DNA of 62,025 nucleotides, filler included, from Globobulimina sp. (GCA_003354225.1; 21 parts of 21 records of this genome joined end to end with filler, not necessarily neighbours in it); one strand, 5' to 3'; counted from the first letter of the whole stretch, positions 1-59,069 are shown. Translations and numbers: made by a program. Notes: generated from the letters alone by a model not told the origin.

Positions 1-947
1 TGCAGTTCATCGATCATGTCATTAATAAACGCAGCAAACAATATGGGGCTAAGGACGGAGCCTTGGAGCACGCCATTCTGTAAACGAAAGAGCTGAGTAA
101 TGAAAGGAACATCGCGTATGGCTGATTGGGAGTCATTGTAGATGGCCTGAATGAGTTTGCAGACATTTATAGGAATGGCGAAGTTATGATGCAGTTTGTA
201 GAGTAGGCCTTTTCTCCAAACTGTGTCAAATGCCTTTTTTATATCCAAGGAGGCGCAGTAAAGGGGCTGGTTATGTTTGAGGGCAGTTTCCGAGACCAGG
301 TGGAGAGTGCCAATTTGTTCAGGGACTCCACGTTGGGCTCTGTTGCCGCCTTGAAGAATATGTAGATTCCGCCTGAATTTGTGGTTTATATTCATGTTCC
401 AAAGGAGGAGTCTTTCATAGGCTTTAAAGATTATGGGCAGCAGAGTGATGGGTCTATATTGGTTCGGGGTGTCACCATCGGGCGTTTTTAGAATGGATAT
501 TATGGAGCCCAGTCTGCAGTAGTATGGGATGATGTAGGTTGCATTCCAAACGTTAAACATGACACAGAGGAGTTGATGTATGAGGTCTGAATTGACGGAA
601 AGATGCTGCGACTTTAATCCGTCATAGCCCGGTGCTGAATTCGCATTGGCAAACTGCATGGCCATTTCGACAGAGCTGTATTTCAGAGAAGAGTCATATT
701 CATCCTCTGGATTGTCGGTGGTGATATCATCTGTGGGGGCAGTCGGGAGAGCATTATGACGGAGGTTTGGGAGAGGAGCTGCATCATTGCCAGGGGTGTC
801 AGGGCCATTTATTTGATGTATCATATTGTGCTCAATCTCAAACATTTCTATTTGTTCATTGTGGTTTTTGTCTTGGTTATCCGGGTTATAATGGGGAATG
901 CCGTTCGTGTGGTTTTGTTGCAGCCAGGTTTCAGGAGCGTTTGTCAT
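1..947 (-). mobile_element. Non-LTR retrotransposon reverse transcriptase, running off the window edge (absent from the ORF track)
   Basis: Manual minus-strand translation gives SAPGYDGL, QYRPITLLPIIFKAYERLL, LDIKKAFDTV and NGVLQGSVLSPILFAAFINDM. In-frame ATG at 947; the frame is open further upstream. Confidence 0.93.
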
Positions 948-1059
948 GGGTTCCAAGGGAGGAGGGGGCAATGTTGGGGGATCGTTGTCGTCATTGTTGG
1001 AAGGTTTGGCGGGGATGAAGACTATATTATTATGTTGGAAATTATTGAGATTGCGGTTG

Positions 1060-1135
1060 AACTGATTGATGCAGTGGATTTTTGGAACAAACTGATTGAT
1101 GCAGTGGATTTTTGGAACAAACTGATTGATGCAGT
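1060..1135. repeat. 30-bp tandem repeat (about 2.5 copies)
   Basis: aactgattgatgcagtggatttttggaaca repeated. Confidence 0.9.
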
Positions 1136-1209
1136 TGAACTGATAAAAATGCAACAAATATGAGTATGAGTATGAAGAGGAAGACGAAGAGGAAGAGGCG
1201 AAACTCGAT

Positions 1210-2472
1210 ATGGAAGCAAACGACAATGAAATTTTGCCATTGTCATTGTCTGAAAACTGCGTTAATATAAAAAGATTTCGTAGAGAATCCGTGTCCGGAC
1301 CAATAAAAGGCTCCTCCCACTTCACTCCATTTGTGACCACATTGATTGTTATGATATTTGCAGGCTCAAGCAACGATTTTTTAGCAAAGCTCATCTATCA
1401 AATGTATCCAGGCCACAATGATAAATTGAACGGTGTTTCTGCTCTCAAACACGAATATTGGTTAACATTTTTATTAACATTTGGATCTTTTTTTGTGTGT
1501 TTTTTTGCGTTATTTGCGAAAGCAGCGCGTGCTTCATTTGGTAGAGTAAATACTAAAGTTTTGATAAAAATTGCGGTTCCATCCATTCTGGACACATTAG
1601 TTACAGGCGGCCGCTATTTAGGTTTAGTATTCTTATCTGCTGCGCTTATATCTATCTTAAAAAATGGATCGCAACTTTTATTCCTCGCATTGTTAAGGTA
1701 CATTTGTATAATTTTTGTAATTTTTCTACAAATCTACATTCCATGAAATCAAAGGCGATGCTTTCATCATAAGAAACTTTTATGTGCGGAATGGTTGGGC
1801 ATAGCCATTATTATAACTGGTTTATTGGTGGTGACATTAAATAAAATGTATATAACTCTGTCTGATGACGACGGAACAGCAACATTTACAGATGGCATTA
1901 TTGGCATTGCAATCATGATAACTGTTGGTTTTGCGGGTGCAGTACGCAACGATATCGAAGAATTGTTGTTGAAAAATGATAACTTAAATGCAAATTTTAT
2001 TGTGGGCTTAGAATCAGCCATTTCGTTGACATTTACCCTGATTTTAGGTGTTTTATTGTATGCTGTTGATCCATTTCATAATATTGATAAAGAGGATATG
2101 TTTGCCAATATTAAAAGAGATATTTTGGTCAAACCTGCATTCATTATAAGTTTTGTTTTATTTTTAGTGGCAATTTATGCCAAAGATACAATGCAGATGA
2201 AAATGACTGCGCTGTCAAGTTCTTTAACGCGGAAATTGTTTCAACAAATCTATCCATCCGGAACTTGGATCATATCATTGACAGCGTTTGCCATTACTTC
2301 TACGTTTGTTGTATTTGGTGGTAAGTATGGCGAAGATTGGGAAGATAAATATTCATGGATTCGATTAGCAGGATTTGCCATTGTGTTGGTTGGAAATTAT
2401 TTTTATATCAAAGGACATATTATTTTTGCAAAATTGACGTATTGGAGAAGTTATACAGTTTCATATGATTAA
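1210..2472 (+). CDS. SLC35F6-like / DMT-superfamily membrane transporter, 2 exons (intron 1698-1754)
   Basis: Multi-TM protein with PSILD, GL..LSA..I, EELL, VGLES, 'SSLTR' and GEDW motifs. Splicing the 57-nt GT-AG intron joins the two ORFs in frame (LRRCFHHKKLLCAEWLG). Confidence 0.8.
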
Positions 2473-21046: not shown

Positions 21047-22081
21047 TTATAATTTAGAAACAAGGGAATCATTGCAAACTGTAATCAACAATTTTCCAAC
21101 AGATTTCCTTGACATTAAATCTCTGTATGCATCCCTAATTGACTCAACATCAAAAGTATATTTTTTGCCAATCATGGGCTTTAATTGATTGTTTTTATAC
21201 ATTTCAAACGCTTGCAATATAGCATTTGTGTACAAAGTATAATCTTTTCTTGCGGTGTCACCCAATCGAACTCCGAGAACATCAATATTTTTCATTAAAA
21301 TTCTATTCATTTTGACAGTCGGTATTGTCCCCGATGTAAATCCGATAATCAATACCTTTCCCAATCTATTCATACATTTCAATCCTTGGTTAAAAGCAGC
21401 ACCGCCAACGATACTGACAAATACATCAATGCCACCAAATTGTTTCTTGATTATTTTGCTCCAATTTCTATTTTTTCTATAATTTATAACAAAATCACAT
21501 CCATTCCGAATTGCAATTTCTTTTTTCTTGTCATTTCCAACACAGCCAATAATCTTTTTGCATCCAACAGCTTTTGCAATTTGAATGCAGGCAGTCCCCA
21601 TGCCGCCACTTGCTGCGGTTATCAATATGCTTTGTTTTGAATTAATACTGGCGCGTTTTATTAGTGCCATTGACGCCGTTCCAAAACTGCTGACAAATGC
21701 TGCGCCATCATCGAATGTCATATTGTGTGGCATTTTCCATATTGACGCTGCAGAACAAATTGTATATTGGCACAATGAGCCATGATTTTGACTTCTCACC
21801 GCTGCGCCACACACTCTGTCACCAACCGCAAATGTGGTGTTTTTACGGCCACATTTGACCACAATGCCTGCAAATTCGCTGCACAAAACAAATGGAGGCG
21901 TCTGTCGGTGTTGATATTTGGATTCAAGAATTAATCCATCGAAAAAATTTAGACCAGCGGTCTTGACTCGAACCAATATTTGATTTGCTTTCGGTTCTGG
22001 TATTCTCATTTTCGAAGAGATAACGTGCTTCAAACTCTCTTCGTAATTGTTGCCCAGTTTCTGACAAACAAAAGCTTGCAT
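21047..22081 (-). CDS. NADPH:quinone oxidoreductase (zeta-crystallin/MDR family)
   Basis: GLNFFD, PPFVLCSEFAG, AASGGMG, VGKLLI; first in-frame ATG at 22081. Confidence 0.93.
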   Translation of the reverse strand: MQAFVCQKLGNNYEESLKHVISSKMRIPEPKANQILVRVKTAGLNFFDGLILESKYQHRQTPPFVLCSEFAGIVVKCGRKNTTFAVGDRVCGAAVRSQNHGSLCQYTICSAASIWKMPHNMTFDDGAAFVSSFGTASMALIKRASINSKQSILITAASGGMGTACIQIAKAVGCKKIIGCVGNDKKKEIAIRNGCDFVINYRKNRNWSKIIKKQFGGIDVFVSIVGGAAFNQGLKCMNRLGKVLIIGFTSGTIPTVKMNRILMKNIDVLGVRLGDTARKDYTLYTNAILQAFEMYKNNQLKPMIGKKYTFDVESIRDAYRDLMSRKSVGKLLITVCNDSLVSKL

Positions 22082-22107
22082 AGTGACATGCAGCAAGACT
22101 AAATTAA

Positions 22108-23580
22108 TTAATTTACACTTTTTTTATAAAATAATAAAATCGCAGTGGCTTGATTGATCACTTTGGCAGCATCCATTCTTTTTATTTTCGAGTCATTTGC
22201 AAAATACCACTGATTCTCATTCATCCCTTTCACAAACGCCCAATAATGGCCATATTCTAAGCCCCCGCTATGATTACACACGGCGTACAATTCATACTTA
22301 TTCCCATCCAAAAATACCACGTGTTCGTAGCCAACGCAATCCTCAAATTTCTTTCCATAAAAATAGCGATCAATTCCGAATATCAACACCGCGGGAAAGC
22401 GAACAATTTTAGTTTCCTGTTTGAAGACTTGACAGGTTTGACCGCCGCAACTTCCTCGACAAATGACAACGGCGCCACGGTCCATTACCTTCGTACCACA
22501 GTACGTCTGATATCCACGCTCCATTTCCCGTATACAGGCACGGTCTGCCGACACAACCTTGTATTTCTTGGCAAATGCATTATACACTAAATGCGTTGCT
22601 TGCATTTGGTTCTCTGACAAGGCCTGGTAAGTAATCATGGCATTGGCCATGTTTTCCTTTTCGTCCTTGCTTTTAATAAATTCGACGATATCTTTGAAGT
22701 TCGCCACATTCCCGTCCAATTTATCTGCGATATCAATCACCAATTCGCCCGACACCTCGCTCATATCATACATATTCCATTGCAACTCACTTTCCTCTGC
22801 CATCCAGAAACAAACTATACTTAAAAACGCATCTTTCGAAAGTATCCGACATTCATACTTTGCATTCCCATCCAACAATACTTTTTCATCAAAATAAATC
22901 TGCTTCTTTGGATATCCCACCTTTGAAACTGCAGCAAAGGACTTGTTGTCACCTTCTTTGATTTCCTCGACTTGCAAATAACTCTCTTTTTCATCCACAG
23001 CACCCTCTTTATCTATAAATACATGGAATGTGTTAACCGCAACAAAATCATCGCCGCCTGCACCGACCACCGCAAATACAGATTGCCCAAACAATGCGGA
23101 ACAATTTTCCTTTTCGTCACAAGCTCGGATCCAGGCACCCACCGCATTGGTTTGCTGCGGTTTGATATAAAACATTGATATTTGATTGATGTCATTAAGC
23201 TCCATATGTCCACCGGAAGCCACTTCGTAATATATTTGATAGCGTAATGTTTGAAGGGGGCAATAATCCAAAACAACAAACTTCGCTCGAAACATCGGAG
23301 CAGCTGTTTTCAAGCAAGGGATATAAATATCGACAGACACTGAAATGCTGCGATCCTGCAAAGGCAGCAATATTTTATCTTTTACATCATATCGCGGCTC
23401 GGTCCAACCACACTGCAAACACGTAAATATATTCTGTTCTACGAAATGTATAGAATCGCGAATTATGGATTCCGTCTCCGGATTATATTTCCACCACTCA
23501 CACTCCAACAATTCGTCTTCATCCATCTCAGTCGAACCGTCATCATACCACGAACCGGAATGTTTATTTGTTAGCGGTCT
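22108..23580 (-). CDS. Ubiquitin-specific protease, C-terminal half (5' truncated)
   Basis: His box YELYAVCNHSGGLEYGHYWA..WYFANDS..AILLFY. Confidence 0.88.
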   Translation of the reverse strand, partial: RPLTNKHSGSWYDDGSTEMDEDELLECEWWKYNPETESIIRDSIHFVEQNIFTCLQCGWTEPRYDVKDKILLPLQDRSISVSVDIYIPCLKTAAPMFRAKFVVLDYCPLQTLRYQIYYEVASGGHMELNDINQISMFYIKPQQTNAVGAWIRACDEKENCSALFGQSVFAVVGAGGDDFVAVNTFHVFIDKEGAVDEKESYLQVEEIKEGDNKSFAAVSKVGYPKKQIYFDEKVLLDGNAKYECRILSKDAFLSIVCFWMAEESELQWNMYDMSEVSGELVIDIADKLDGNVANFKDIVEFIKSKDEKENMANAMITYQALSENQMQATHLVYNAFAKKYKVVSADRACIREMERGYQTYCGTKVMDRGAVVICRGSCGGQTCQVFKQETKIVRFPAVLIFGIDRYFYGKKFEDCVGYEHVVFLDGNKYELYAVCNHSGGLEYGHYWAFVKGMNENQWYFANDSKIKRMDAAKVINQATAILLFYKKSVN

Positions 23581-38472: not shown

Positions 38473-39417
38473 ACCACAGATTTACCATTTTCAGACTTAT
38501 TAAACATTATTATCAAAACCTCACAAATTGCCAAACAAAGTGGATATTTAATATCATTTGAGTCTGAACAAACTTTGCTTGAACACAATGGTATACAATT
38601 TATGGTAATATTGGCAAAAAATCTCGCAAAAAAACCAAAACCTAAACTGGCTGAACAACAAACCAACGCTGTAAAATCATTCAAAGATCCATTTATGCCG
38701 CCATTTGATATCGGCGCTCATGTCGTTGATTTAAATGATGAATATAGAATTTTATTAAATAAATTCAATGTGGTTCCCAATCACATATTAATTATAACCT
38801 CTTCATTTGTGCTGCAAACCTCTCCTTTAATCGCAAAGGATTTTGAGATTGCCTTCAAAGTACTTTTATCAATGAATGGTTTATGTTATTTTAATTCTGG
38901 TCCATTTTCTGGCGCATCTCAGCCACATAAACATATTCAAATAATACCAAGAAATCAGAAGGTTCCAATGGAGCAATTTATAAAAAATATTAACACCAAT
39001 CATCGGAATTATAATGAGCAAAAACGAAATGAAAATACGTTTTATGTACTAAAAGAATATTCATTCATTCATAGGGTATATTTAATACACGATCAGAAAG
39101 ACAGTGATTTATATGATGTATATTCTGCAATGATCAATGAGATCAGAAATGATATGGAGAAAGGTGGTAATATGGAATATTTGAGCGAGGATAAGTTTTC
39201 TTATAATATGATATTGACAGCGGATTATATGTTTATTGTTGGGAGAAGGAATGATGTTTATTGCAATGATAAAGTGTTTGGCAATGATATGAATATCAGT
39301 GTCAATGCAATTACATTTGCTGGTACTTTTTTTTGTAAATCTGAGCGGAGTTTAGCTATGTTGAAGCAAGTGGGACCTTTAGCTGTTTTAGATTTTGTGA
39401 CATTTCAACAGAAATAA
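38473..39417 (+). CDS. ATP adenylyltransferase / Ap4A phosphorylase (Apa1/Apa2 family; 5' truncated)
   Basis: DPFMPP, LLNKFNVVPNH, NSGPFSGASQPHKHIQ, VNAITFAG. Confidence 0.93.
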   Translation, partial: TTDLPFSDLLNIIIKTSQIAKQSGYLISFESEQTLLEHNGIQFMVILAKNLAKKPKPKLAEQQTNAVKSFKDPFMPPFDIGAHVVDLNDEYRILLNKFNVVPNHILIITSSFVLQTSPLIAKDFEIAFKVLLSMNGLCYFNSGPFSGASQPHKHIQIIPRNQKVPMEQFIKNINTNHRNYNEQKRNENTFYVLKEYSFIHRVYLIHDQKDSDLYDVYSAMINEIRNDMEKGGNMEYLSEDKFSYNMILTADYMFIVGRRNDVYCNDKVFGNDMNISVNAITFAGTFFCKSERSLAMLKQVGPLAVLDFVTFQQK

Positions 39418-41430: not shown

Positions 41431-42369
41431 GATCCAGCAATCTTTCTCATTGTCCTTCTTGTTCTGATGCGAAATGGCACTGCACGCTCGCCGCACCATT
41501 ATGTTTTCGCGCGCATTCTCGATGGTGGCCAAATCTGTGCTGAACAGCTCTTGACAGCGTTTGTTGGCTTGCGCCCAATTCAAGGAACGCATCACAGCCA
41601 CATAGTGCCCGACGACGTGGATACGGGCCCGCTCACAGAGAGCGATGCGCGACAACGAGCATTTGATATCATTCCATTGCCCGGAAGTATGCAGTTCGGC
41701 GCAGCCTTCATTGCCGCCGTAATTGTTCGGTTCGCCTGGCTTCCAATGCAAGTAAGTTGGACGCCGGCCGTCTTCCCAATGGCCCCACGGCTTTTTGTAG
41801 CCAATCCAACAGTTTCCTTGGTTCCATTTAGCGCACAGATCCTTGGCCTGCTCTTCTTCCTTTTTGCTCATAATAGAGGCCAAGCCGCCGTATAAATGGC
41901 GACAAGTCATCTGCGCGTCTTTGAAGCGGCGGGTTATGCCGTCCGCCACATAGCGGCCTTTGTGTTTGGCCACGTTCCACCGACCCAAACGACGGTGCGT
42001 GTTGGTGATGTTAGTGTGGTTGGATGGGTTTGGAGTGGCTGTTGGAGGGAATATGGTGCTCCACTCAGAGGCTGTATCGTAGTGTAATGACAAGGCAGGA
42101 ATGGCTGTGGTTGTATGGGTGTATATGTATGTGAATGGAGTGTTGTTTAAATGTGGCGTTATGGTTATAGTGTTTGTGGAGGGATTGAGGTTTATAGTAT
42201 TTACATCATCGTAAGGGTTGATTTCAAATTCGTAACGATAGGAAGTGAAATAATGGGTGCTGCTTATGTTTGGTGTTGGGAGTGATAATAATTTTGAGTT
42301 AATGTGACTTGTTGTTGATAGTGTATAGAATAAGGAGGTTATATATATAAATAGATTCATGTTTTTCAT
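41431..42369 (-). CDS. Secreted protein with tandem C-type lectin domains (3' truncated)
   Basis: Signal peptide; CWIG, WKPGEPNN..EGCAEL..WNDIKC; a second CTLD begins. Confidence 0.92.
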
Positions 42370-43014
42370 GTCAGGTGCATGAAATATATATTTATAATCT
42401 GTTGTTGTTGTTGGTGTTTAGGACACCGTTTGTTAACTACTTGTTGGTTTGTGCAAGGATGCAAAGCGCATAAACACTTCACTTCACTCTAACATCTGCT
42501 ATCAATATTAATGATGTCGACGTGTATGCTTGTAGAGCACTGAAATTGATTGTAGAGGCAAAGAAAGCACATGATCGATACGCAACAAGTTGAATCTGAC
42601 GAAAATCATCTATATATATCACAGAATTAGAAGCAAACAACTATTCAATCAAGCATCTCGTTGAAAACATTGAATGAACATCGATATCAAATACAGACAC
42701 CATTGAATTTGTGATGAATAAAAAACAAAGAGATCGAAAACAGAGAAATGGATCTTAAAACATTTACTTTTGATGGACCAATTAGATTCAATTAATGCGT
42801 TCCCTTTTCATACAATAATTATAGAAATATATGAGATATGGATGAAACTGTTATTTTATCATACTTTTACATAAAAATAATATTTAAACTACATGGACGT
42901 TGGTTTAGATTTGCACCAGAAATGTAATTCTAATTCTGACAATTTTAAAGATTTATGTACATTCCAATTCATAATTATAAACTGATCCTTAAATAGCAAT
43001 ACATGTACTTCTCC

Positions 43015-51714: not shown

Positions 51715-51776
51715 GGTTTCACAGTTCTTGTTTTTATAAATAGATCTTTTCAAATATAGTGGTCTGAGCTAAAATC

Positions 51777-53157
51777 ATGCTGAAACCAAGAAGTACACGG
51801 CGTGTTACAATATCTAAACTGCAGTCACGTCCACATTCATCTCATATGTCATCTTCATCTCCGCCATTAACATCATTAGCATGCATTAAACAATCGCTAA
51901 TGATTGGATTTGGTGCATGGTTTATGATATGCATTATTTACTACCTATTTGTTATCATAACATCAAAACCTAACAATGCATCCAAACCAACGATACATCC
52001 AACATTAAAATCTAAATACAATACAATGATTGATAATAGCTATCGAACCACACAAAAGCAATCAAAACCAGACACTCCGCAACCAAATGGAATTAAAAAC
52101 CCGTTAACCTTTGAATATAAATACGGACACCCAACCAAACGAGATATGGAGAATCCATGTATTGTCATATTGACATATAACCGGCCAAATCAATTGTTAC
52201 GCACTGTCAACTCATTATTATCAATTGAAGGCGTAACATCATATAAAATATACATATCGCAAGATGGCTACATGCAGTCCGCCACAAATATGATCCAAAA
52301 CACAATTGGTGCCATACCTTACCAACAACCAGCAAATCATTCAAAGGACAGAACAGTTATAAAGCATATAGTTCATACACAGGCCAATTATGTCCGCGAT
52401 CCCACCGCAAAATTGGCAATCCATTATAAATTTATGTTTGATATAATATTTAACGAATTGCAGCATTCACACGCCATTATATTGGAAGATGACATGGTTT
52501 TCAGCGCTGATTTTCTAGAGTACTTTGCCGCCACTGTCCACTTATTAAATGATGCTGGAAACGATTTATTTTGCATCTCCTCCTGGAATGACTATGGGCA
52601 AACCTTCTTAGATCATGACCAGAAGGCATTGTTCCGCAGCGATTACTTCCCCGGTTTGGGATGGTTGTTAAAGAGAGCATTATGGGAAGAGATTCAACAT
52701 ATATTCCCCGATGACCATTGGGATCATTTTATGAGAATGGATATTGTCACAAAAGAGAGAGATTGTATCTATCCGGATATATCTCGCAATTATAATATCG
52801 GTGAGATTGGCAGTACGATGGATGGTGAATGGTATAATAAGTATTTACGTCCAATGCAATTTGATGAAACGCTGCGAATTGAGTTTGGAGAGTTAGATTT
52901 ATCATATTTAGAAAAAAGAAACTATGAAAAATATATGATTGATATGTTTGAAAATAAAGCCAAATTTGTTGGTATATTTCCAAGGGACCGGCAATTGATA
53001 TATCAACAAATAAATACTCCAAATATTAATAAGTATGGTAGTTGTTTGTTGATTGCATATTATGGCTATAATTGGCAGCAAATTGCAAATAGAATTGGCG
53101 TGGTAGAAACACAAAGAACCAAACATAAAAATACAATTGTGATTAAAAAGAATAATG
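51777..53157 (+). CDS. GT13 N-acetylglucosaminyltransferase (GnT-I/MGAT1-POMGNT1 family; 3' truncated)
   Basis: Type II TM; YNRP, ISQDG, ILEDD, CISSWND, RSDYFPGLGW. Confidence 0.93.
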
Positions 53158-53874
53158 NNNNNNNNNNNNNNNNNNNNNNNNNNNNNNNNNNNNNNNNNNN
53201 NTTAATTAATTAANNNNNNNNNNNNNNNNNNNNNNNNNNNNNNNNNNNNNNNNNNNNACTCTAGCTGACCCAAAAACCTTGCCAATCACAAAAGAAGTGT
53301 TTAGAAGTTTAAGCCTAAAAAGTCAATTATCTGCAAACATCAAACCCATCTTTCTAACTTTCACTTTTTTATAAATTGTATCTGTCACATTCCATAACAT
53401 CATAACAAGTGCAAGATTAATATGGATGCACAATTAGCATTTTATTCAGTTACATTTTTCCTTTATTTAATGTATTAAACTGGTCATTCATGATAATGTG
53501 GATGATAACAATTCAATTAAAACTCTTGAGGAAATCAAAACTAATCATGGAGCTATCACAACCAACCTCAACACAGCATATTTGATGAGACCAAATCACA
53601 ACAACCACCCGTCAAAAAGCGTAAACTGAATAATGATAAGCAACCATCCACACCGCCACATCATTGGAACCCGCCCAAAGCAATAACTCCCCACAATCGC
53701 CATTAGTCATGAAAATACCCAAAATGTTGAATGGAAAAACGCCACAAAATGAAACGTTGACCGATTCCCACAAAACAAAGAAATCAAGATTTAAACGTGC
53801 TGTTGGCTTGAAATCCAAACCAAACAAATCTCAACAAAGCCTTGATTTCAATGAGTTATTCCCGGTGGAAAAAT

Positions 53875-56091
53875 TTAAACAAATTTATATTTCTCTTTTA
53901 GCGCAACAATTTGTGGCAAATGACAAATATCGCCATCCATTGAGTATATTCCTTCGATGACAATCAATATTTTGCTGTACTTTTGTTCCAAAATTGATTC
54001 AACTATAATTTGTTCCAAATGTTGCACATTATTATGCTCAAATATTTTGGTTTTGGCATCACTGCATTTTGCACCAAAAATGATGGAATTATGATTCGAA
54101 GCATCTGAAATAATCAAATTGTCATTTCCCTGCATCAACGAATGTATCACAGCTAAATTGGTGGCCCAGCCCGAGCCAAATATCATTGACTCTCTGTTAT
54201 CATCAATGTCATTTCCATTCATTTTTGAAATGAAATTTGAAATGTTTTTTTCCAACATTTTGTGAATTGCTGTGGTACCACAATATGGTGCTGTTGTGGT
54301 GCAACACCCATAATCATCAATTGATGATAGTATATCTTTTTGAGCGGTTTTGTTGTCTGCAAATCCTGAATAACCAAACGAGCCAACATTCAAACATTCT
54401 TTCTTGTATTCTGCCAAATAAATTTTGCTGCCACCATTGGAGCTCACCACTCGTTGCAAAACATCTAAAATGGGATATATGACTCTATAAACCCAGAAAT
54501 TCACAAAAACTCCATTGAAATTTAAAACGTGATTTTTTTTTATGTCATCATTAACTGCACCATTTTTGTAACAATTATCGCACCATTTTCTGAATACAAA
54601 TGTTACCACACTCCAATAAAAACTTACTTTCATTTTCCACGGTATAACGTATCTCATCCCACGTCTTATAGTTATTGGTTGTTGCAATTGTTTTGCTTTT
54701 GAACGTACATTTTGTTCAATATTATTCTCATCATATTCATATTGAGCATGCATTTTATTATCAATAATAATATCATCAATTCGCTCATTTAGTAAATTTG
54801 TAATAATATGGACAGATTTTCGTATCTCATCAGTTGTATGCAATGTGGAAACACACATTTTTAGACTTGGTGTTATTTTATCATTTTTGTGAGGAAACGG
54901 TGAATAGCCAGGAGATAACCAAACACATTCTTCTTTTGCCATTTTGCACAGTTTCTCAATGTATTTTAAATGTAATCTGTCATTTTTAATATTTTGTCGT
55001 CTTAAATGAATTAACGGAGAATCATTAATATCTCCCTCTAAATACCAATCATTTGGAATCTTTTCTTGCAATAACTTTCTCATCAAATTTGTGTTATTTT
55101 TTAATTTCTGACAATAATTATCCCCATTTAATGACAATAAATGTAACGCAGTTTGCGCCACAACACAACTAAATGGCGGTGCTGATGCCGAGAACACATA
55201 ACCAAAAGATGTGAATCTTTGAAATAAATCCAACTCTTTGTCAGCAATACAAAAACCACCGGTACTGCCCAATGCAGTCTCCATCGAAGAGAAATACAGA
55301 TCGACATCGGATATATCGATGTTATGATAGCCAATGGATCCCAATGGATGAATAGCTCCAAAACTGTGGCTGTCATCAACTATTAAAAAATATTTACAAA
55401 TTCTATTTTTAATGATATCTACAATTTCTTTTAATGGACAAATATCACCGAAATTATAAAATATTCCTTCTGTAATAATAAAACGTTGCTTGTATTTTTG
55501 ATATTTTTTATTATTTTCAATTTCATTCAAACATTGCTTCAACGAATGTATGTCGTTGTGTTTATAATAAATGATGTTTGATTTTGATTGCAATGAACCT
55601 AATTCGATTAAAAAATGGCAGGCATCATCAATAATCAATAGATCTTCTTTTGTGGCAAACGCCGATATTATGGAGACTGCTAAACTAATATAATCGGAAT
55701 AGATAACTGCGGTTTTATTCTTGTCCCCAAAATACGCAGCTAGTGCTAGTTCCAAATTCTTGTGAGCATCCATTGTCCCATAGAAATTTCTAGCACTGCA
55801 ACTGCCGACATTGTATTTCGAAATTGCAGTTTTTGCGGCATTCTTTACCCTTTCATGAGTTGCTAAACCTGAATAATTACAACTTAATAAATTAATAAAT
55901 GACGCCTTCGAATTCTGATCATTTTTGCTGACGACAATGGGTTGATATTCATCAAATGTTTGTGCTTGGTTTTGATCATTTTGATGTAATGGTTTTGGTT
56001 TCCATTTTTTAAGTATTTGTTGCTTATTTTTTGGCTCTTTTTGTTTTTCTTTTTTGTTTCTGGATTTGAAACAGTAACAAATGAAACACAC
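53875..56091 (-). CDS. Single-chain serine palmitoyltransferase: LCB1-like half followed by LCB2-like half (5' exon missing; LCB2 half incomplete)
   Basis: LCB1: WKPKPL, GSCSARNFYGT, SMETALGSTGG, YVFSASAPP. LCB2: FVNFW..ILDVLQR, LNVGSFGYSGFA, GWATN, SDASNHNS, IEGIYSMDG. Confidence 0.9.
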   Translation of the reverse strand: MCFICYCFKSRNKKEKQKEPKNKQQILKKWKPKPLHQNDQNQAQTFDEYQPIVVSKNDQNSKASFINLLSCNYSGLATHERVKNAAKTAISKYNVGSCSARNFYGTMDAHKNLELALAAYFGDKNKTAVIYSDYISLAVSIISAFATKEDLLIIDDACHFLIELGSLQSKSNIIYYKHNDIHSLKQCLNEIENNKKYQKYKQRFIITEGIFYNFGDICPLKEIVDIIKNRICKYFLIVDDSHSFGAIHPLGSIGYHNIDISDVDLYFSSMETALGSTGGFCIADKELDLFQRFTSFGYVFSASAPPFSCVVAQTALHLLSLNGDNYCQKLKNNTNLMRKLLQEKIPNDWYLEGDINDSPLIHLRRQNIKNDRLHLKYIEKLCKMAKEECVWLSPGYSPFPHKNDKITPSLKMCVSTLHTTDEIRKSVHIITNLLNERIDDIIIDNKMHAQYEYDENNIEQNVRSKAKQLQQPITIRRGMRYVIPWKMKVSFYWSVVTFVFRKWCDNCYKNGAVNDDIKKNHVLNFNGVFVNFWVYRVIYPILDVLQRVVSSNGGSKIYLAEYKKECLNVGSFGYSGFADNKTAQKDILSSIDDYGCCTTTAPYCGTTAIHKMLEKNISNFISKMNGNDIDDNRESMIFGSGWATNLAVIHSLMQGNDNLIISDASNHNSIIFGAKCSDAKTKIFEHNNVQHLEQIIVESILEQKYSKILIVIEGIYSMDGDICHLPQIVALKEKYKFV

Positions 56092-56427
56092 TGAAATTAC
56101 AGCACAAGAAATANNNNNNNNNNNNNNNNNNNNNNNNNNNNNNNNNNNNNNNNNNNNTTAATTAATTAANNNNNNNNNNNNNNNNNNNNNNNNNNNNNNN
56201 NNNNNNNNNNNNNATTGTCTATTGTTAGTAATCAGTGGCCTTAAACAATTCGAAAGGTCCTTACTAGATACACGAAATGCTTGTTTGTTTGTAAATTTTA
56301 TCTATGAAAAACGTCAAGACATATTACATAGACAGGTGAAATGAACTGCCTAGACAGATACGAGCATTTCACCCTAAGACTAGATAAACACAAGACCCTA
56401 CACACAGTATGACAATAAAATAATAAA

Positions 56428-59069
56428 CTATAACCTACTTATGTCGAGTAAAAACATTGCGTCATTAACAAAATTCTGTGACTTAACAAATCGGGTAAAT
56501 GTGCTAATATTGGCATGAATAATATCATCATTTAAATGGTTCCATAAATTACTGGCTACATACAGAAAAGACTTTTTGTTTCTAATCGGACCTGAATGAT
56601 ATGATGGTAACATAACAGTTAAAGAATGATTTGTACGACTACTACGTCTAGTATTACATACATTGACAGAAACGATACAACCCTGTGGTAAGTACCGAAA
56701 TAAGTGAATATAACGGTACATCAAAAGGCAACGACGCTCACACACAAACCGTGACACAGATTTCCATTTAAGAGTACATAACATATCTGAATATGAAACA
56801 TTATACCGATTTAATGATAATTTAGCTGCATAACACTGAAGTCGCTCTAATCTTAATTGATCAGTTACATTTGTAGGATATGTAACCGAGCATGCATACA
56901 AAACTGATGGTTTAATAACTAGTTCATAAACTTTGCGTATAACATGAGGAAATTTGTGGCCAATAGTACGACGGAGTGCTCCTAGGGCAGACTTAGCAGC
57001 TGCTACCTTTTTGTTGGTATGTGAGCTAAAGGACAATCTGCGATCTAGAAGCACTCCGAGGTACTTAACTTCCTCTACACATGCAACAATAACATCCCCA
57101 ATTGATAGTTCAGGGGTAAATGGTGTAGGGGCCGGACCGGGAGCAACCGAAAATATCATATACTGAGTTTTACCAATATTGAGGGTTAACCCCAAATCAG
57201 CAAAAGCTGCAGCAACGACACTCAGGTCACTCCTGATCCGACCCTCAGACTGACTATTGAGCAAAGGGCACACATAACATAAATCATCCGCGAAACCGAC
57301 TAAGTGTGCATCAGGCGATAATTTAGACTGAAGAACAGAGTTAACATATGCAACAAATAACACAGGTGACAAGACACCACCCTGTGGGGTGCCACTTAAT
57401 ACAGTACGTGTACTAGAGAGTTGGCCACCAACTCTAACTGATTGAGTTCTATCAAATAATAAAGATTTTAGTACACAAAGCAAATAAGATGGTAAATTAT
57501 ATGTATGTTCTAAACATGTTAATAACCTCCCTAATGGTACAGTATCAAATGCTGCACTTACATCAAAGAAAATCGCACATGTTTCTGTTCTTTTTCCTTT
57601 GCACTTTTCAAACCCATCGCAAATTAACTTTTCAAAATAGACCAGAGCATCCTCTGTGGACCGGCCACTTCTGAATCCAAATTGACTGTCAAACAACAGA
57701 GGGCCAAGGTATGGTAGCAGCAATTTTAATAAATGTTTTTCCAATATTTTGGCAAGGAATGGCAACAAACTGATTGGACGATAGTCTTTGGGCAAAGTTG
57801 ACCCTGATATTTTTGGTATAGGAACCACAATTGCATGTTTCCATGATGATGGAATTTTTCCTTCGACTAAACAGCGATTGATAAGTATAGCCATTGTTGG
57901 GGCCAAGATAGCAGCTGCCTCTTTTAGCAATCGAATGGGAATGTTGTCATGACCCGGTGCTTTGTTTTCAGGTATTTTCATTATCTCCTCATATACGAAT
58001 TCTGCCTCACACATCCACTCTGGTTCTAGTTCAGGAGGTGGTACTGTATGCGGGGGTGGCCCATCCTGTGTATTCCATTTAGTGTCATAATGATCGGCAA
58101 TGACATTAGCTTTCCCAACATTATCGAATATTGGTACATTATCAACAGATAATGTCGGAATAGTAGCAGGGGGTCCTTTAGTCACATTTCTAATCGATTT
58201 CCAAAATTCTTTTGGTGACTTGCAATTTTGGAATAAATCAGTATAATGAGATAGTTTAGCAGACTTTACCTCCTTTTCCACCCTCTTTTTCAAACGTCTA
58301 GCATAACGACTTTTGTTAACATCATTTGGGTTGTGATCGGCGGCAGCTTGTGAATTGTTCTTTCTTCTAATCAGTTGTTTGAGGGGTTTCTTTAGCCATG
58401 ACTTAGAGGGGTCCAATTTTATTGTTTTTTGGGGGACATTTGCAGTAGCAGTTGTTAAGATCGAAGTTGTTAAAATTTCAGCTGCTTCATCGATGGTAGA
58501 TGCATTTGAAATCTTTTCTGACAAATGTTGGTCGGCCAATTGTTGTCGATAAGAAGTCCAATCAGCGCGTTTATACACCCAAACTGTACGTGAAATAACA
58601 ATGGCTTTCGGCGCGATAAAAGGTAAAATCACCCATAACATACGATGGTATTTTTCTATGCATCCGGAAGTACCCCAGGAGGGTGATGGCCAACAACATG
58701 GGACTAGAATATGATCAATAGCTGATGAACTTCTAGGAAGAATATGTGTTGGTAGATTAACAATTTGGTCCAGTTCATAATTATGACAAAAATAAGTATA
58801 GTCCTCTTCTATTTTCATCGAGTCAATGTTCGTATCACCCATGATAACAAGACGTTGCCTTTGATGGGCTAGATCAACAATAAATTCAGACAACAGGTCG
58901 AGAAAGTCTGATTTACTTTGAACATTCGGCGATCGATAGACTGAGGCAATAATGAGAGATTTTCGTCCATTATGAACTTCTACAGCAACTAGTTCAAGAC
59001 CAGTAGGTGTTCGTCGGGGTGCCAACTTTCGGGGGTTTAGGTCAGATCGCACAAATAAACCAACACCAC
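56428..59069 (-). mobile_element. LINE retrotransposon ORF2 (APE endonuclease + RT), uninterrupted, 5' truncated by contig edge
   Basis: SVYRSP, MGDTN, AIDHI; KAPGHDNI, YRPISLL, QFGFR, DVSAAFD, GTPQGGVLSP, FADD, KYLGV. Confidence 0.96.

Follow-up and report, generated by a model that had tools for sequence, protein, structure and literature searches.

A probable gene for a reversed-order single-chain serine palmitoyltransferase, seen in part on a contig of Globobulimina sp.

Serine palmitoyltransferase (SPT) is the gatekeeper of sphingolipid synthesis, and in its canonical form it is a heterodimer of two separately encoded subunits, LCB1 (SPTLC1) and LCB2 (SPTLC2). In a stretch of DNA of 62,025 nucleotides from Globobulimina sp. 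(GCA_003354225.1; the whole stretch analysed is called the window below), a long open frame joins an LCB1-like sequence to an LCB2-like one (Table 1), which raises the question of whether the two subunits naturally form a single chain in this order and, if so, how much of the gene the contig holds. An earlier note on this DNA, which gave no strand, described a single-chain SPT encoded by an uninterrupted frame of 738 amino acids (aa). The frame, which lies on the minus strand, is indeed free of stops over 53875-56091, and 745 open codons would hardly arise by chance at the given base composition (P ~3e-28). The figure of 738 aa, however, counts from an arbitrary GTG and is an artefact of bacterial start rules, the frame being really open into the artificial spacer that follows the contig. 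Since, in addition, the first Met of the frame is residue 114, with none before it, the true start must lie beyond the contig end at 56113. We consider it likely that this frame is an incomplete view of the gene for a reversed-order single-chain SPT. The description as a single-chain enzyme is borne out by full-length relatives with the same natural fusion, but it does not extend to the contig copy, which lacks the catalytic half of LCB2 and is not a whole enzyme.

Two serine palmitoyltransferase subunits in one frame

A similarity search of 5.8 billion protein clusters yielded two full-length EukProt proteins of the same build, P0002 (958 aa, 45% identity at 100% query coverage) and P0003 (915 aa, 41% identity), in each of which an LCB1-like domain devoid of the pyridoxal phosphate (PLP) lysine is connected to a complete LCB2-like domain by ~40-50 linker residues. 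In tblastn, residues 21-758 of P0002 align to 56112-53887 as one high-scoring segment pair in an ungapped frame (45.6% identity), and residues 1-708 of P0003 align with 41.4% identity. The frame and both relatives share many invariant residues on either side of the linker and few inside it. The LCB2 halves of P0002 and P0003 carry the histidine of NHNS, the DEAHS motif and the Schiff-base lysine (GTFSKGF in P0002, GSLSKGF in P0003). A fragment of 335 aa, P0268, which has the catalytic residues and 52% identity to the P0002 LCB2 half, is a fourth member of the family. With two independent full-length relatives colinear with the frame through the linker, the natural fusion proposed in the earlier note is, judging from these alignments, real.

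The first half of the frame is the nearly complete, non-catalytic LCB1-like domain with SMETALGS that had been noticed before. Residues 19-443 match Arabidopsis LCB1 (7yjk_A) over residues 55-477 of 482 (E 3.9e-58) and human SPTLC1 (E 2.8e-54), and the top seven matches are all LCB1/SPTLC1 chains. The domain PF00155 covers residues 72-435 of the frame; it is found in two stretches of the frame (139.9 bits against a cut-off of 19.7), and likewise in P0002 and P0003. With LCB2 as the outgroup, this half falls within the LCB1 clade with a support of 100 (here and below, values of the Shimodaira-Hasegawa-like approximate likelihood ratio test, SH-aLRT). The column of the PLP lysine, which is occupied by K in the LCB2 halves, holds Thr279 in the LCB1-like half of the frame, M in that of P0002 and T in that of P0003.

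The part that follows the linker was described as an LCB2-like subunit, and its identity stands: residues 550-743 match Arabidopsis LCB2a over residues 80-270 of 489 (E 5.7e-42) and human SPTLC2 over residues 146-338 (E 1.5e-36), and this half lies within the LCB2 clade with a support of 100. Its extent does not stand, given that just the N-terminal 45-55% of the subunit is there. The SGWATN motif is present in this part. In the alignment, the PLP lysine (GTF[ST]K) and the aspartate and histidine of DEAHS are absent from the contig copy and present in P0002, P0003 and P0268. Half-profiles for the two subunits span residues 1-449 (LCB1h) and 536-745 (LCB2h) of the frame, stand-alone LCB2 proteins start to match the family profile at about position 490, and the linker is found where it had been expected (about 54650-54800), namely, at ~54658-54783.

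The motifs that had been remarked on as divergent, SFGYSGFA and SCSARNF, are confirmed in the alignment; they are common to the family and do not reflect sequencing noise. In humans, neuropathy mutations that alter which amino acid is chosen fall on the cysteine of the LCB1 motif.

At the N-terminal end, the contig holds just the last 15 hydrophobic residues of a membrane anchor of the LCB1 type. They align to a segment of P0002 (residues 18-36, Kyte-Doolittle hydropathy 1.94), a protein that extends ~20 residues further upstream and in which the full N-terminal anchor is visible; the P0003 record starts after that segment. Residues 1-15 of the frame thus appear to be the C-terminal part of this anchor, cut by the contig end.

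By analogy with the solved LCB1/LCB2 heterodimers and with the single-chain enzyme of coccolithovirus, the halves of a full-length protein are predicted to pair within the molecule and to share one active site. The two halves would fold back on each other to form, within one chain and anchored in the membrane of the endoplasmic reticulum, a copy of the LCB1/LCB2 heterodimer, and the single active site at the interface of the halves would condense serine and acyl-CoA to 3-ketosphinganine. In this order, the C-terminal end of LCB1 would be directly connected with the N-terminal end of LCB2, and LCB1 would retain its own N-terminal anchor.

Table 1. Features of the contig that carries the fused frame, with positions counted along the window
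Feature	Position	Strand	Basis or remark
Contig with the SPT frame, 2856 b	53258..56113		Spacer on either side
Open frame, 745 sense codons plus TAA (53875-53877), translation P0001	53875..56112	minus	5' end open into contig end
Hydrophobic residues 1-15 (ISCAVISVCFICYCF)	56068..56112	minus	Aligns to P0002 segment 18-36
LCB1-like non-catalytic alpha-oxoamine-synthase domain, residues 19-443	54784..56058	minus	Solved-structure matches, PF00155
Motif VGSCSARNFYGT, residues 102-113; canonical LCB1 has VGSCGPRGFYGT	55774..55809	minus	Alignment; P0002 has VGACSARNFYGT
Thr279 of SSMETALGS, PLP-lysine column	55276..55278	minus	LCB1/LCB2 domain alignment
Low-complexity linker, poorly conserved, ~residues 444-485 (~40 residues)	54658..54783	minus	End of LCB1 homology to start of LCB2 homology
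LCB2-like N-terminal part, ~residues 486-745, ends KEKYKFV	53878..54657	minus	Solved-structure matches and alignment
VGSFGYSGFA, against canonical SYNYLGFA	54358-54387	minus	Alignment
His674 of SDASNHNS, PLP-stacking histidine (S-D-x-x-N-H-x-S) present	54091-54093	minus	Alignment
Break point TTT GTT TAA (F V stop)	53875..53883	minus	Homology to relatives ends
Contig remainder 3' of the stop, 617 b	53258..53874		No LCB2-like coding in six frames

The 3' break and the state of the contig copy

The frame terminates with ...LKEKYKFV and a stop, at the point from which the relatives continue with CYLYVDEAHS / LKEKYNCYLYVDEAHSIGA...GTFSKGF. The stop falls 5 residues before DEAHS, and this motif, the PLP Schiff-base lysine and ~200 residues of LCB2 are missing from the contig and from the whole window. 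Among the six-frame pieces of 53258-53990, searched with the family profile (hmmsearch --max), only the end of the open reading frame (ORF) itself scores, and tblastn of P0002, P0003, P0012 and P0004 (E<=10) against the whole window found no LCB2 C-terminus. Having no catalytic half of LCB2, the contig copy, as read, cannot give rise to an active enzyme.

Most likely, the remainder of the gene is located elsewhere, separated from the frame by a long intron, a break in the assembly or a misjoin. A GT at 53879-53880, exactly at the point of divergence (AAATTT/GTTTAA), could be a splice donor; since there is no continuation in the 617 b downstream, the intron, if there is one, must exceed 617 b. 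We also considered a frameshift as the source of the stop. This is unlikely given that the downstream minus-strand frames are unlike the expected continuation and that the hmmsearch over all pieces of this region did not detect one.

A different possibility, to which we give less credence although it deserves to be taken seriously, is that the contig copy is truly truncated, either as a partial duplicate or by a rearrangement or insertion break in a repeat-rich genome, such that it yields no active enzyme, whether or not a complete copy exists elsewhere. The abrupt end of homology at the stop codon, with no continuation in the remaining 617 b and with a simple frameshift being unlikely, is compatible with this scenario, as are the retrotransposon reverse-transcriptase ORFs on other contigs of the window. 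According to Table 1 of PMC13746701, the one foraminiferal genome sequenced so far has an N50 of 3609 b, a repeat content of 30.5% and introns of 87 bp on average. If the genome studied here resembles it, an intron of more than 617 b would be unusual, which favours a break or a truncated copy over simple splicing. Conversely, the 745 codons are intact and conserved to the last residues (KEKYK), so that any break would have to be recent; the GT stands exactly at the divergence point; and the downstream 617 b contain no recognisable repeat within the window, blastn against which gave the self-match alone. The loss of the catalytic end of LCB2 and the expectation of short introns count against the view of the frame as part of a gene that continues elsewhere, which we nevertheless prefer.

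On the opposite strand of the same contig, a stop-to-stop frame of 106 codons (53640-53960, plus) shares 86 b with the SPT frame at the end of the latter, and there are more low-complexity frames on the plus strand upstream of the 106-codon frame. The latter may represent noise or the terminal part of a convergent gene.

Rarity and origin of the domain order

The LCB1-LCB2 order (here and below, N- to C-terminal) is very rare. A profile of three sequences (the frame, P0002 and P0003), run with HMMER on every protein of 1.84 billion representatives, gave 19216 matches at E<=0.001. Among the best 150 of these 19216, one protein has the LCB1-LCB2 order (P0002, which matches in one stretch over the whole profile) and 39 have the LCB2-LCB1 order. 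When the architecture of 385 proteins was classified with the half-profiles, the LCB1-LCB2 order was found in three (the frame, P0002 and P0003) and the LCB2-LCB1 order in 41 (39 of them from the best 150 profile matches), whereas 69 consist of LCB1 alone and 272 of LCB2-like or other alpha-oxoamine synthase domains alone. A profile search at the level of 90% clusters (5.8 billion clusters) again produced P0002 and P0003 alone as proteins with the LCB1-LCB2 order; the 15 new proteins from this search (P0386-P0400) are outside the classified set. Matches of odd length were considered as possible hidden cases of this order and rejected, P0209 and P0221 being single aminotransferase domains and P0238 an LCB1 that contains a large insert. 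The literature covered, which mostly does not include subscription journals, yielded no account of a natural LCB1-LCB2 fusion.

Several of the LCB2-LCB1 proteins (P0131, P0133, P0136, P0137, P0140, P0143, P0144, P0148 and P0150) are 1220-1420 aa long and have 300-500 extra residues after the LCB1 half or, in P0143, inside the protein.

The origin of the fusion was addressed with a separate tree for each half. The LCB1 tree consists of 76 rows, namely, 51 stand-alone proteins, 18 of the 41 LCB2-LCB1 proteins (those with at least 330 profile positions), the three LCB1-LCB2 proteins and four LCB2 outgroups; 16 near-duplicate plant LCB1s (P0021-P0033, P0041, P0042 and P0046) and short or over-long rows were left out. 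In this tree, the three LCB1-LCB2 halves group as one clade (support 100), whose sister clade (91) consists of stand-alone LCB1s, among them that of the foraminiferan Ammonia sp., and the 18 LCB2-LCB1 halves form a clade of their own (96). The LCB2 tree consists of 66 rows (41 stand-alone, 17 LCB2-LCB1, three LCB1-LCB2, P0268 and four LCB1 outgroups), of which the row of the frame fills 47% of the columns. Here, the family and P0268 group together (100), nested within a clade of 15 rows (99) that also holds Ammonia-type stand-alone LCB2, and the LCB2-LCB1 halves group elsewhere (89). The stem branches of the fused family are long (0.8 changes per column in the LCB1 tree and 0.7 in the LCB2 tree), which fits the altered motifs.

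In the approximately unbiased (AU) test, a tree with all fused LCB1 halves in one clade was rejected (delta lnL 54.6, p 0.0116). Together with the placement of both halves beside Ammonia-type subunits, this rejection makes an independent fusion in a foraminifer-related lineage the best reading, and to this extent the earlier proposal of independent origin holds. The strength differs between the halves: as far as the trees go, independence is supported by the LCB1 half and only favoured by the LCB2 half, for which a single clade of all fused sequences was not rejected (delta lnL 18.1, p 0.186). Besides this last result, several further points tell against an independent origin or soften the case for it: the sister relation to Ammonia-type LCB1, at 91, is below the starred level; both trees were built in 'quick' mode, with SH-aLRT as the measure of support; and, although the clade put to the AU tests was set by the hypothesis of the earlier note, the trees were already known when the tests were run. 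Under an independent origin, foraminifer-type LCB1 and LCB2 would have been duplicated and fused in a process apart from the one that gave the LCB2-LCB1 fusions, and the resulting family would then have evolved fast. Canonical stand-alone LCB1 (P0004) and LCB2 (P0271) both occur in Ammonia, which suggests that the fused gene is an additional paralogue.

The LCB1-LCB2 order could, in principle, also have arisen by circular permutation, in which an LCB2-LCB1 fusion is duplicated in tandem and the outer halves are lost. Fusions of the latter type are widespread (41 of the 385 classified proteins), and the AU test on the LCB2 half leaves room for a joint clade. Nevertheless, we consider such a derivation improbable because the unconstrained trees put both halves with stand-alone Ammonia-type subunits, away from the LCB2-LCB1 clade, and because the joint clade is rejected for the LCB1 half. 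Finally, that the fusion is an artefact of assembly that joined separate LCB1 and LCB2 genes is scarcely credible even though the contig is short, the assembly is highly fragmented and a discontinuity does seem to exist in the 3' part: the frame runs through the junction without interruption, two full-length proteins of other sources with the same order align across the linker, and each half has a closer match in the fused proteins (49% and 53% identity) than in any subunit that stands alone.

Genomic setting, known counterparts and meaning

The window is a string of 21 contigs, each of ~2.86 kb (~2856-2860 b), which are separated by artificial spacers of 100 b with the structure N44-TTAATTAATTAA-N44 (e.g., 53158-53257 and 56114-56213). 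The element TTAATTAATTAA occurs in 20 copies across the window with a period of ~2958 b, against a chance expectation of 0.11. Because the contigs are joined by these spacers, the ORFs that flank the SPT gene are not its neighbours, and any argument from neighbourhood across a spacer is void. Two other contigs contain reverse-transcriptase ORFs, at 56431-59067 (minus; RVT_1, E 6e-33) and 6-1394 (minus; RVT_1, E 1.3e-17), which, by their sequences, look like parts of non-LTR (long terminal repeat) retrotransposons. A frame for a zinc-type alcohol dehydrogenase (21050-22123, minus) abuts, with an overlap of a few bases between the stop-to-stop frames, a UCH (ubiquitin hydrolase) frame (22111-23580, minus); here, either two genes are packed very closely or a frameshift has split a fusion. 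A GNT-I family glycosyltransferase (51768-53156, plus; E 7.5e-59), a C-type lectin domain protein (41434-42417, minus) and an Ap4A phosphorylase (38476-39414, plus), on other contigs as well, are ordinary eukaryotic gene content.

Natural single-chain SPT of the LCB2-LCB1 type is already known, and the opposite order seen here is a variant thereof, not a new principle. According to section 2.3 of PMC6148460, the single-chain SPT of the coccolithovirus EhV begins with the SPT2-like domain, which bears the lysine; this enzyme, which can complement yeast and needs no partner for its activity there, has a preference for C14-CoA. Like this enzyme and the other LCB2-LCB1 proteins, the family described here is a natural single polypeptide with one LCB1-like and one LCB2-like alpha-oxoamine-synthase domain. 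The difference is in the order: the lysine-bearing domain is N-terminal in EhV, as it is in 41 of the 385 classified proteins, whereas the half-profiles follow each other as LCB1h and LCB2h in the frame, so that the polarity is opposite to that of the viral enzyme, as had been stated in the earlier note. Moreover, the LCB1 halves of the two types of fusion are of two kinds that belong to separate clades (AU p 0.0116), and P0012, an example of the LCB2-LCB1 type, has ~30% identity to the frame.

Canonical heterodimeric SPT (LCB1/SPTLC1 with LCB2/SPTLC2; solved structures 7yjk, 6m4n, 8c80) provides the best match of each half and shares with the fused family the LCB1 without the PLP lysine, the catalytic residues of LCB2 (in the full-length relatives) and, as seen in P0002, the N-terminal anchor on LCB1. 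What sets the family apart, besides the joining of two genes, is the replacement of CGPRGF by CSARNF, of SYNYLGF by SFGYSGF and of GFATN by GWATN, and deletions in the LCB2 half, where, for example, the GQPRTHRPW segment of canonical LCB2 is gone.

The nearest stand-alone kin of both halves are the LCB1 and LCB2 of Ammonia sp. (P0004 and P0271) and their relatives. Ammonia LCB1 has 42% identity to the LCB1 half, and Ammonia LCB2 has 37% identity to P0002. These subunits are separate proteins with canonical motifs, unlike the fused family with its long stems. The stand-alone LCB1s P0004, P0006 and P0007 have a lysine in the PLP column (GMDKALG) and keep the D..H of DDSHG, unlike plant and yeast LCB1, which have neither this lysine nor the DDSHG histidine. 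To judge by these residues, P0004, P0006 and P0007 are possibly PLP-competent, which would be unusual for LCB1.

Engineered single-chain SPT versions from work on the mammalian and yeast enzymes, which are built with LCB2 first, resemble the family in that the subunits are tied in one chain and their stoichiometry is fixed, and for this reason they serve as tools; unlike the family, they are artificial constructs. The phrase 'single-chain SPT' occurs in PMC12974560 and PMC11307022.

The functional consequences of the divergence can be outlined only tentatively. The changed motifs presumably lie in segments that line the active-site interface, and an altered specificity for the amino acid or the acyl-CoA is conceivable. 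A more specific proposal, which we put forward as a speculative one with the odds clearly against it, is that a foraminifer-related lineage has independently evolved a reversed-order SPT paralogue beside canonical LCB1 and LCB2, in which CSARNF, SFGYSGF, GWATN and the LCB2 deletions would confer a different amino-acid or acyl-CoA preference and lead to unusual long-chain bases. If true, this shift would parallel the C14 preference of the viral fusion. To our knowledge, hardly any studies have addressed the sphingolipids of foraminifera and related organisms.

The practical value of this particular contig is limited given that its copy has no catalytic half. The family itself offers a divergent enzyme with changed motifs next to the putative active-site interface, which may interest sphingolipid enzymologists, and, for students of gene fusion, a second, apparently independent case of subunit fusion to set beside the type known from coccolithovirus and haptophytes. 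That the subunits are also naturally fused the other way round would imply that both topologies of single-chain SPT are viable.

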